60,909 bases of DNA, from NCBI RefSeq assembly GCF_003334405.1, contig NZ_QOWM01000019.1; one strand, given 5' to 3'. The position numbers are program-made. Position 1 is the stretch's first letter. Each line of letters starts with the position of its first letter. Source of the DNA: Escherichia coli (GTDB taxonomy: Bacteria > Pseudomonadota > Gammaproteobacteria > Enterobacterales > Enterobacteriaceae). Below, piece after piece: positions 57,001-60,909 of the stretch.

Positions 57001-60000
57001 CGCAAGCAACTGGATGATTTTTTTGAACTTGATGACAACTTCCATCAACTCCTGACGCAGATTGCCGACTGTCAACTGGCGTGGGATACCATTGAGAACC
57101 TGAAAGCGACCGTTGATCGCGTGCGCTATATGAGTTTCGACCACGTTTCTCCACCAGAAATGCTGTTACGCCAGCATCTTGATATTTTCTCTGCCCTGCA
57201 AAAACGTGATGGCGATGCGGTAGAACGTGCAATGACGCAACATTTGCAGGAAATCAGCGAATCCGTGCGCCAGATCCGCCAGGAAAACAGCGACTGGTTT
57301 AGCGAAGAGTAATTCATTTCCTCTCATCCCATCCGGGGTGAGAGTCTTTTCCCCCGCCTTATGGCTCATGCATGCATCAAAAAAGATGTGAGCTTGATCA
57401 AAAACAAAAAATATTTCACTCGACAGGAGTATTTATATTGCGCCCGTTACGTGGGCTTCGACTGTAAATCAGAAAGGAGAAAACACCTATGACGACCTAC
57501 GATCGTAACCGTAACGCAATCACCACTGGCAGCCGTGTTATGGTTAGCGGCACCGGTCACACTGGCAAGATCCTGTCGATTGATACTGAAGGTCTGACCG
57601 CTGAGCAAATCCGCCGCGGAAAAACCGTAGTTGTTGAAGGTTGTGAAGAGAAACTGGCACCACTGGACCTGATTCGTCTCGGCATGAACTAAGCGTGTGA
57701 ATGCCGCCGATGGCGGCATTGCTTTTTTACTTCACGGAATATTTTGCCACGGTCGCTTTCGCGCCATGCGCTAATAAAGACAAGTACGTTTCCGTCACTC
57801 TTGCAGTAAACAAACTATTGTCTGGCAAATCATCACCAAAGATCGCCTTAATCGCCAGCAATGACTGGACGCGCGCTTTCCCTTCGGCACTACTTTGTAC
57901 AGCCTTCTGAATAACAGGTAACAGTGGGTCACTGATTTCTATCGGATTTCCCTGTTCATCAACACCACCGACATAACGCATCCAACCCGCGACGCCCAGC
58001 GCCAGCAGATCGAACTTGCTGTCATGCGCCAGATGCCAGCGAACAGAATCCAACATCCGCTGTGGCAATTTCTGGCTACCATCCATCGCAATCTGCCAGG
58101 TTCGATGACGTAACGCCGGGTTGCTATAGCGTGCAATTAATCGGTTAGCGTAATCTTGCAAATCAACGCCCTGCACTTTCAACGTCGGCGCTTGTTCCTG
58201 CAACATCAAGCCATACGCCGCATAACGATAATGTTCATCTTCCATACAGTCATTAATGTGCTGATATCCTGCAAGATACCCCAGATACGCCAGGAATGAA
58301 TGACTGCCGTTGAGCATGCGCAACTTCATCTCTTCATAAGGCAGCACATCGCTAACCAGTTCGGCTCCCGCTTTTTCCCATTCCGGACGTCCGGCAACAA
58401 AGTTATCTTCTATTACCCACTGGCGGAAAGGTTCACAGGCAACGCCCGCAGGATCGCGCACACCGGTAAGTTGTTCGATTTTCGCCAGCGTATCCTCTGT
58501 CACTGCGGGCACAATACGGTCCACCATTGTTGATGGGAAAGTCACGTTATCTTCGATCCATTGTGCCAGTTTTACATCAACGGCTTGTGCGTAGGAAGTG
58601 ACAACGTCACGCATAACATGACCGTTTTCTGGCATGTTGTCACATGACATGACGGTAAATGCGGGAAGTCCTGCCGCTTTACGGCGAGCCAGCGCCTCAA
58701 CAATCACCCCTGTTGCTGTTTTCGGCTGGTGGGGATTTTGCACGTCGGCAGCTACCATCGGGTGATCGAGCATTAACTGTCCGGTCGCCGGAGAGTGGAA
58801 ATACCCTTTTTCGGTGATTGTCAGAGAGACAATCGCGATTTGCGGTTCACACATCGCTGCCAACACGGTTTCTAAGCCATCTATCTGTACGTGCAAGGCT
58901 TTTTTAACGACGCCAACGACGCGAGCCGTCCACACATCGGCCGACATTTCCGCAACGGTATAAAGATTATCTTGCTGTTGTAAATCGGCAATTTGCTGTT
59001 CGCCGCCGATTAAGTTGACCTCATAATATCCCCAGTCACTGAAATGTTCCGTAGCAAGAATATCGGCATACACACCCTGATGCGCACGGTGAAATGCACC
59101 AAAGCCTAAATGAACAATTCTTGGAGCCAGGTTATTACGATCATAAACAGGGAGTGTCGCTTTTGCTGATAACAAATTATTTCCCATAACAATTCCTTAA
59201 ATATAAATATGGCAAGCTATATGTTTTGTTATATGAATAAAAATCCCCTCTCCGGTAAGAGAAGGGATTAAGGGTTTACAGACTTCTGGAAGGTTGCGCA
59301 GCTCTTACAACACGCGGTTGATCTTCCGCAGCGTCTTCCAGCGCACTTAAATCACGGTCTTTCACCTCTGGCATTTTCAGCGCAGAGATTAAACCAATCA
59401 CTGAATATGCCATGATCATAATGGCGATCGGATACCAGGATTCCGTCATGGTGCAGAAAATACCCGCCAGGATAGGACCAAAACCGGAAGCGATAAGACC
59501 ACCAATTTCTTTAGAAATAGCCATCCGGGTAAAGCGGTTTTTACAGCCGAACATTTCTGCCATGGTAATGTTTTCCAGAGCAAATAATCCCAGCACCGCA
59601 CAGTTATGAATCACAATCAGTGCAACCATAATGGTGCTCGGGGCATAGCTTTTATCTACAATGATAGAAAGCATTGGCCATGCCAGCACAATCGCGGAGG
59701 TATTCATAATAATATACGGGATCCGGCGACCAATTTTATCGGATAACCAACCAAGGAACGGAATGGTCATAAAGCCGAGAATCGAACTGATCATCAATGC
59801 ATCTGTTGGAATTGCTTTGTTAAACAATAACGTCTGCACTAAATAGCCTGCAAGGAAAGTCTGAATTAACCCGGAGTTACCCGCCTGACCAAAACGCAGC
59901 CCTGTTGCCAGCCAGAAGGATTTGCTCTGGAACATGCTACCAGCAGGTGCAGGTTTTGCTGTCGGTTGGTTACTGTCGTTAACCTTCTCAAAGACCGGGC

Positions 60001-60909
60001 TTTCTTTCAGATTCATACGCAACCAGATAGCAAAGACCATCACGACAACACTCGCCAGGAACGGTATACGCCATCCCCACGCCAGCAGTTCCTCTTTACT
60101 GAGAATGAAGAACATAAAGGCCCAGATTGCCGTTGCGCTCAAGGTTCCGCAGTTAGTTCCCATAGCCACAAATGAGGAGATAATTCCGCGCTTACCTTTT
60201 GGCGCATATTCCGCCAGCATCGTACCGGCACCGGAAATTTCCGCACCTGCACCCAACCCCTGAATAATACGCAACGTCACCAGCAAGATGGGTGCAAAAA
60301 CACCAATCTGTGCATAGGTCGGTAACACACCAATTAAGGTGGTACAGATCCCCATCATGGTGATGGTAATAAAGAGCACTTTTTTACGCCCTATTCTGTC
60401 GCCCATTTTGCCGAAAATAAATGCTCCGACAATACGCGCCACATAACCTGCACCGTAGGTTCCCATTGCCAGAATTAACGCCATTGCCGTTGATGATTCA
60501 GGAAAAAATATTTCATGAAACACTAACGCTGCGCCGAGCGAATATAACTGGAAATCCATAATTCACAGGTGTTTTTTCCCATCCTGTGGTTTCCTTGGCG
60601 TTTTCTAGGTTTTTTCAGATAGTTGCATTTTTTAAAAAGCATCCTAAGTTCGATCTCAGTGTCTATCTGGGGCCCATTTCTGTCCCATATATGCCCCAAA
60701 AAAACTCCTCAACAGATAAGTAGTTTTTTCATGGAGTTACGCGTAAAATCAATAACGGCTGGAAATCATTCAATACTCGCACTATCGAAAAATTTACCAG
60801 CCAACCGCAGCACGTTCTTGCATAAGGCGTGTCTGCGGTTTTTCAACTATTCAGATACATCACTCCCATCACATTCATTCCTCCACATCAAAGGCATATA
60901 GGCTATATC

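Follow-up and report, generated by a model that had tools for sequence, protein, structure and literature searches.

A probable attL junction of a Qin-type lambdoid prophage within the transporter gene ydfJ of Escherichia coli

The Qin (Kim) prophage of Escherichia coli K-12 was described as an insertion into the 5' end of ydfJ which cost the gene 28 codons and its promoter, and it was present in 48% of 638 strains (Ramisetty and Sudhakari 2019, PMC6379469). According to the genome paper of E. coli W, ydfJ harbours Qin in W, K-12, B and Crooks alike (PMC3032704). Integration by a tyrosine recombinase within coding sequence at a short core is also found for Rac in ttcA and for e14 in icd (PMC6379469). 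In the case of e14, icd is kept intact by duplication of its 3' end, and with Rac only the N-terminus of TtcA is changed. Here, a stretch of 60,909 nucleotides of E. coli DNA (assembly GCF_003334405.1, contig NZ_QOWM01000019.1), the whole of which is called the window, was analysed at its end, where the ydfJ reading frame borders on AT-rich DNA. Judging from sequence comparisons, this end is very probably (roughly 97%) the left junction (attL) of a Qin-type lambdoid prophage integrated site-specifically in ydfJ according to the Campbell model. The host gene, the breakpoint and the 28 lost codons are the same as for Qin of K-12, and the splitting of ydfJ by a Qin-type prophage is an already known feature of K-12 and the majority of other E. 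coli, which is correctly rediscovered here.

The remaining part of the gene (ydfJ', the 3' part of an MHS family MFS transporter gene, codons 29-455 and the stop codon) lies at 59276-60559 on the minus strand, as delimited by the open reading frame (ORF) list, the intact allele and the TIGR00883 match. It forms an uninterrupted ORF of 427 amino acids which starts with ATG and reads MDFQLYSLGAALVF at the N-terminus, the opening residues being also given as MDFQLYSLGAALVFHEIFF in the ORF list of the window. Translation of the upstream sequence revealed an in-frame TGA two codons 5' of this ATG, by which the frame is closed off from the flanking DNA. Since the phage arm also gives no replacement N-terminus, unlike the situation in e14 and Rac, ydfJ is truly truncated. 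The same stretch is labelled in the RefSeq records of matching genomes as 'MHS family MFS transporter YdfJ, incomplete, missing N-terminus'.

When 59200-60909 was compared by megablast with 5,426 complete E. coli genomes, the matches fell into two classes, one covering the whole query and the other reaching up to query position 1366, which corresponds to window 60565. A match of the latter kind was obtained in strain 167, which possesses a complete ydfJ of 1368 nt adjoining rspB in the one-strand order rspA-rspB-ydfJ-ydfI. The intact YdfJ of this strain has 455 amino acids, with the N-terminus MTIEKHERSTKDLVKAAVSGWLGTALEF followed by MDFQLYS. The window ORF equals its residues 29-455 with 0 differences in 427 residues and 0 in 1284 nt, and the apparent start codon of ydfJ' is the native internal Met29. 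A previous inspection of the window (the sequence-only reading) had proposed that an insertion split the gene, and that an intact orthologue of the same length would speak against it. The orthologue found by alignment to prophage-free genomes is 28 codons longer (455 versus 427 amino acids) and contiguous with rspB. Together with the phage flank, the far-end fragment and the att core described below, it bears out the split. The boundaries of the first transmembrane segment (TM1) were taken from the coordinates of the Pfam and NCBIfam matches and from a hydropathy profile, which was weak. On these boundaries, the 28 lost codons are predicted to encode the cytoplasmic N-terminal tail and about one third to one half of TM1, counted from its start. 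The conserved Glu of the E-F-M-D-F stretch is lost with them. The first transmembrane segment had been thought missing as a whole; the N-terminus and the start of TM1 are gone, but 28 codons do not account for all of it.

The membership of the protein was examined with family profiles. Against NCBIfam TIGR00883 (metabolite/H+ symporter), the window protein scored 453.5 bits and the intact allele 462.9, with a cutoff of 443.45, and by this curated cutoff the YdfJ' protein of the window falls in the MHS family. The match of the intact YdfJ begins at its residue 23 and covers profile positions 1-400, and that of the window protein begins at residue 1 and covers positions 7-400. The match of the window protein begins at profile position 40 in the ProP model and at 37 in the ShiA model, in agreement with the earlier view that the frame begins inside the conserved core of ProP-type transporters. 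In the intact allele, the Pfam MFS_1 match starts at residue 21 and Sugar_tr also matches. A complete N-terminal domain with all of TM1 is absent from the window protein, which can be classed by these profiles as a fragment of an MHS family member. Compared with the ProP/ShiA/KgtP-type symporters (MHS, TC 2.A.1.6), YdfJ passes TIGR00883 and aligns over nearly the full length to the ShiA and ProP models, but it scores far below their equivalog cutoffs (270 versus 538 for ShiA and 224 versus 544 for ProP) and is therefore a distinct paralogue. The window copy further differs from these symporters in being without its first 28 residues. A solved-structure search with the intact YdfJ returned nothing at E <= 1e-10. 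A full-text literature search for a role of rspA/rspB/ydfI-type clusters in L-gulonate or mannonate catabolism also returned nothing, and no substrate is claimed for YdfJ.

The likeness to uninterrupted genomes breaks off at window 60561-60565, and the GC content is 0.45-0.51 across ydfJ versus 0.365-0.40 in the last 300 bases. The abrupt switch suspected at about 60560 is thus real and had been placed correctly within a few bases. The att core (O), GAAATCCATAA, occupies 60551-60561 without strand assignment; the sequence-only reading had suggested alignment to prophage-free genomes for finding it, and a multi-site alignment defined it as 11 bp common to attB, attP, attL and attR. The sites aligned were attB of strain 167, attL of the window, attR of strain 300709 and attP of the phages Tritos and mEp460. 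Left of the core attL tracks attB, and right of the core attR tracks attB. In this five-way alignment attP is composed as P-O-P', attB as B-O-B', attL as B-O-P' and attR as P-O-B', and attL and attR together rebuild attB and attP exactly around the duplicated 11-bp core with zero host bases lost. The host arm, core and phage P' arm expected of an attL are all present around window 60551-60561, and the empty site and the free phage site are represented by attB in other strains and by attP in Tritos and mEp460. The attP core of Tritos (locus L005, 2990-3000) shows one mismatch, GAAATGCATAA, against GAAATCCATAA in mEp460 and the chromosomes. One copy of the core was found in the window and two in strain NCTC9041, 24,242 bp apart. 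The reverse complement of the core, TTATGGATTTC, holds the ydfJ codons Met29-Asp30-Phe31, thus the start codon of ydfJ' is situated within the core.

The P' arm, which forms the left end of the Qin-type lambdoid prophage and the phage side of attL, was assigned to 60562-60909 (no strand) by its identity to free phages. It comprises 348 bp, is absent from the uninterrupted locus, and ends with the window short of the first prophage gene, ynfT. Over their full length the last 349 bases of the window are identical to the free phages Tritos (99.4%), HannyBb (98.6%), PhiR42_1 (98.0%) and mEp460_ev081 (97.7%). The last 350 bp or so had been suggested to be a prophage end, and this is confirmed by the 97.7-99.4% identity and by identical genomes, in which the arm runs into ynfT-ydfK-pinQ-tfaQ. 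In Tritos and mEp460, the core and arm stretch starts 47 nt past the stop codon of a gene for an integrase of 426 amino acids, and the order is excisionase, integrase, arm stretch, and then a ydfK-like gene, the Pin invertase and tail-fibre genes. Shiga toxin (Stx)-converting phages share partial similarity of 77-85% with the arm. The free phages Tritos, HannyBb, PhiR42_1 and mEp460 resemble the prophage here in carrying attP with the same core and a near-identical P' arm, and their integrase shares 99% identity with the one of the NCTC9041 prophage; they are complete genomes of 45-49 kb, whereas the element here is a decayed remnant. No gene is annotated in the P' arm in RefSeq records. An ORF of 92 amino acids at 60623-60901 had no match in a PHROG search and is treated as spurious, and an Rfam scan of 59276-60909 gave no family.

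Two direct copies of a short repeat, 11 bp apart, are located in the P' arm on the plus strand at 60681-60699, TGTCCCAT at 60681-60688 and TGCCCCAA at 60692-60699, and were found through their repeat family as candidate arm-type integrase sites. The P and P' arms each possess one direct TGYCCCAW pair with the copies 11 bp apart, and the window pair mirrors that of the P arm. Phage Tritos has 4 matches to TGYCCCAW over 6.3 kb, where 0.94 would be expected for the whole locus, and all 4 are situated no more than about 140 bp from the core, the pattern being derived from the same copies that were counted. The repeats are accordingly put forward as putative arm-type sites and as a lead only.

The remainder of the prophage was followed in related genomes. 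NCTC9041 is 100% identical to the window over 36000-60909 (24.9 kb). Over the ydfJ and junction stretch the window is 99.4% identical to K-12-like records and 100% to NCTC9041 and others. Qin had been named as the cause on the model of K-12; the prophage is indeed Qin-type, but the window strain itself is not K-12. The NCTC9041 element starts with ynfT, ydfK, pinQ, tfaQ, tail-fibre and J remnants and nohA, continues with ynfO, ydfO, gnsB, cspI, lysis genes, cspB, cspF, an antiterminator gene, rem, hokD, relBE and flxA, contains several insertion sequence (IS) elements and a truncated exonuclease gene, and has xis and int at the far end. The genes ynfT, ydfK, pinQ, tfaQ, nohA, cspI/B/F, relBE and hokD, which lie past the window in identical genomes, are the same as in Qin of K-12. 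The 24.2-kb element of the closest genomes differs from K-12 Qin in a different IS set and in its full-length int and xis. From this gene content the NCTC9041 element is classed as a decayed cryptic Qin-type prophage of 24.2 kb. Its integrase matches PHROG_1 (E = 3.5e-75) and is identical to that of phage Tritos at 422 of 426 residues, and its excisionase matches PHROG_539 (E = 1.4e-35) and is identical at 83 of 83. A tyrosine integrase and an excisionase are thus found next to the att site in NCTC9041, both genes being outside the window.

Past the second core in NCTC9041 follow the exact 84 nt of the ydfJ 5' end, a 57-bp spacer and rspB. The attR, consisting of the second core with the remaining host sequence, was found outside the window in 300709 and NCTC9041, and in both strains the other ydfJ fragment, which had been expected at the far prophage end, is situated after int. 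The orphan 5' end of ydfJ at attR (NCTC9041, locus L007, 14424-14534; same in 300709, locus L004) reads into the P arm. The resulting ORF of 36 codons, MTIEKHERSTKDLVKAAVSGWLGTALEFMDFKSHAC followed by a stop, lies 57 bp downstream of rspB and could therefore be translated from the rspAB transcript. In strain 300709, the only annotation at the rspA position (locus L004, 36062-36671) is a frameshifted 'hypothetical protein' of 610 nt, hence in this strain decay has also reached the upstream half of the split cluster.

Among the complete E. coli genomes, 3,181 of 5,426 (about 59%) cover at least 80% of the junction-spanning query, and the uninterrupted attB is present in 2,009 (37%). In pathogenic strain CFSAN027350 (locus L008, 4360-7821), the same ydfJ junction is formed by a different lambdoid prophage, which carries nleC, a type III effector gene, as well as a DinI-like gene, and the ydfJ site may be shared by several lambdoid phages. 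Strain BUCT2930 (locus L003, 6077-8137), otherwise 100% identical to the window, carries an IS1 inside the truncated ydfJ', which is a second and independent hit on the remnant. As the truncated copy is identical to an intact allele and live phages use the site, divergence among truncated alleles largely predates integration, and a low ratio of nonsynonymous to synonymous substitution (dN/dS) for them is therefore uninformative.

Downstream of ydfJ', the gene ydfI (mannitol dehydrogenase family) is located at 57727-59187 on the minus strand, according to the ORF list and the annotation of matching genomes. A consensus scan predicted a terminator-like hairpin with a 12-bp stem and a T run at 59242-59269 on the minus strand, just past the ydfJ stop codon and before ydfI. 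The hairpin is also present at the uninterrupted locus, and it suggests that ydfI may not simply be co-transcribed with ydfJ. In the 57-bp gap between rspB and ydfJ of the intact locus, the consensus scan detected no promoter-like or terminator-like site. Intact ydfJ is therefore probably read from the rspA promoter, which is repressed by RspR, and we infer that this read-through is lost on insertion. The missing promoter of the sequence-only reading needs qualifying in the light of these results. Loss of the promoter is stated in the literature (PMC6379469), but none is detectable just before the intact ydfJ, and what is lost is probably the read-through from rspA. The rspAB transcript and the binding of RspR were described in K-12, where Qin parts rspR from rspAB (PMC8249747). 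In the window strain lineage, the prophage cuts ydfJ' and ydfI off from rspAB and the rspA promoter. On the phage side, a consensus scan of the 348-bp P' arm gave no minus-strand sigma-70-like promoter, which is a weak negative. ydfJ is listed among the genes changing on DicC induction in an RNA sequencing study of K-12 (bioRxiv 10.1101/2024.09.21.614188) and is therefore transcribed at some level there.

The likely course of events can be outlined as follows. A temperate lambdoid phage of the Qin, mEp460 and Tritos integration type would have entered the chromosome by integrase-mediated Campbell recombination, with exchange between the 11-bp core of attP, GAAATCCATAA, and the identical 11 bp spanning ydfJ codons 28-31. 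The first 28 codons, the ribosome-binding region of ydfJ and rspAB would thereby have come to lie at the right junction, beside xis and int and at a distance of about 24 kb. Later, the prophage would have decayed to a cryptic Qin-type element by IS insertions and loss of most morphogenesis genes. The outcome would be an N-terminally truncated ORF which opens at an internal Met within the core and is without upstream transcription from rspAB, and ydfJ' is most likely a non-functional remnant. Nothing was found that contradicts the integration model itself. Two points weigh against this account as a whole. The right junction lies outside the window and was deduced here from genomes identical over 24.9 kb. 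The ydfJ' ORF is also undamaged and identical to a functional-looking allele, and the loss of its expression and function is what we infer, whereas the junction, the core, the four att forms, the intact allele and the far-end fragment were directly observed.

The ORF of 427 amino acids could alternatively represent the full-length gene, with the AT-rich flank as its upstream intergenic region. An uninterrupted frame from ATG and a TIGR00883 score above the cutoff (453.5 versus 443.45) fit such a gene, but the contiguous allele is 28 codons longer in 2,009 genomes, the family profile begins 6 positions ahead of ORF residue 1, the supposed upstream DNA is a phage attP arm, and the missing 28 codons are located beyond the prophage. 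This possibility has practically no weight and is refuted by the intact orthologue along with the far-end ydfJ fragment. ydfJ might also have become fused to phage DNA without site-specific integration, through an illegitimate rearrangement, a deletion or an IS element, and Qin-type elements are indeed rich in IS insertions and internal deletions, with an IS1 inside ydfJ' in one genome. But no host base is lost, attL and attR restore attB and attP around the duplicated core, and the same junction is shared by about 3,181 genomes and also formed by a different prophage, which carries nleC. The four-way att alignment refutes such a fusion, which is extremely improbable.

It is quite unlikely, but less so than either of these possibilities, that YdfJ(29-455) is translated from Met29 in the att core, transcribed from the prophage side, and keeps some transport or other function. 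The lack of any lesion in the ORF, the ATG right at the junction and the DicC-responsive ydfJ of K-12 would agree with it. The 0 nt differences from the intact allele point to lack of time or to recombination and not to selection; the arm offers no minus-strand sigma-70-like promoter (the weak negative given above), the remnant carries IS1 in other genomes, and the truncation removed the conserved Glu of E-F-M-D-F as well as the beginning of TM1. The prophage may further be imagined as a reversible switch ('active lysogeny'), in which excision by Int and Xis rejoins ydfJ and restores rspA-rspB-ydfJ-ydfI under some conditions. Both cores are intact, the integrase and excisionase of NCTC9041 share 99% and 100% identity, respectively, with their counterparts in a free phage, and the truncated and intact alleles are the same at the nucleotide level, so occupancy shifts on short time scales. 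Recent integration or homologous recombination between strains would explain this polymorphism equally well, and the integrase is reported to be mutated in most Qin copies (PMC6379469), which leaves the switch very unlikely. If it were true, excision would restore a four-gene sugar-acid utilisation unit. An excision switch reconnecting ydfJ-ydfI to the RspR-controlled rspAB, or a residual function of YdfJ(29-455), is even when both are taken together quite unlikely on the sequences compared, and site-specific integration with a probably non-functional ydfJ' remnant remains the preferred explanation.

Outside the locus, comparison of the window with NCTC9041 (locus L009) in database searches covered 1-25000 and 36000-60909. 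By this similarity, the window from about 1 to 36000 is ordinary E. coli chromosome, with pqqL, yddAB, ydeMN, ydeO, safA, ydeP, the ydeQRST fimbrial cluster, hipBA, the lsr operon and marRAB, as well as a 5.4-kb autotransporter gene of the ECSE_1600 family. The genes ydeT and dgcF are annotated as N-terminally truncated in the matching genome. The only Rfam family in the window was RF01407 (STnc560, an Hfq-binding small RNA), which matches over its full length at 51009-51222 on the minus strand with 281 bits against a gathering threshold of 55.

The present analysis adds three points to the published description. The exact 11-bp core is given in window coordinates. The attP persists in free phages that have been sequenced (Tritos, mEp460 and others), and at least one other strain has a different prophage, with nleC, at this junction. 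The insertion also parts ydfJ-ydfI from rspAB and from the target promoter of their regulator. Beyond correct annotation the finding matters little. In K-12 as in the window strain, the 'YdfJ' of 427 amino acids is a truncated remnant which is not to be taken for a full-length transporter, and comparative or functional work on YdfJ would be better based on the allele of 455 amino acids from prophage-free strains.

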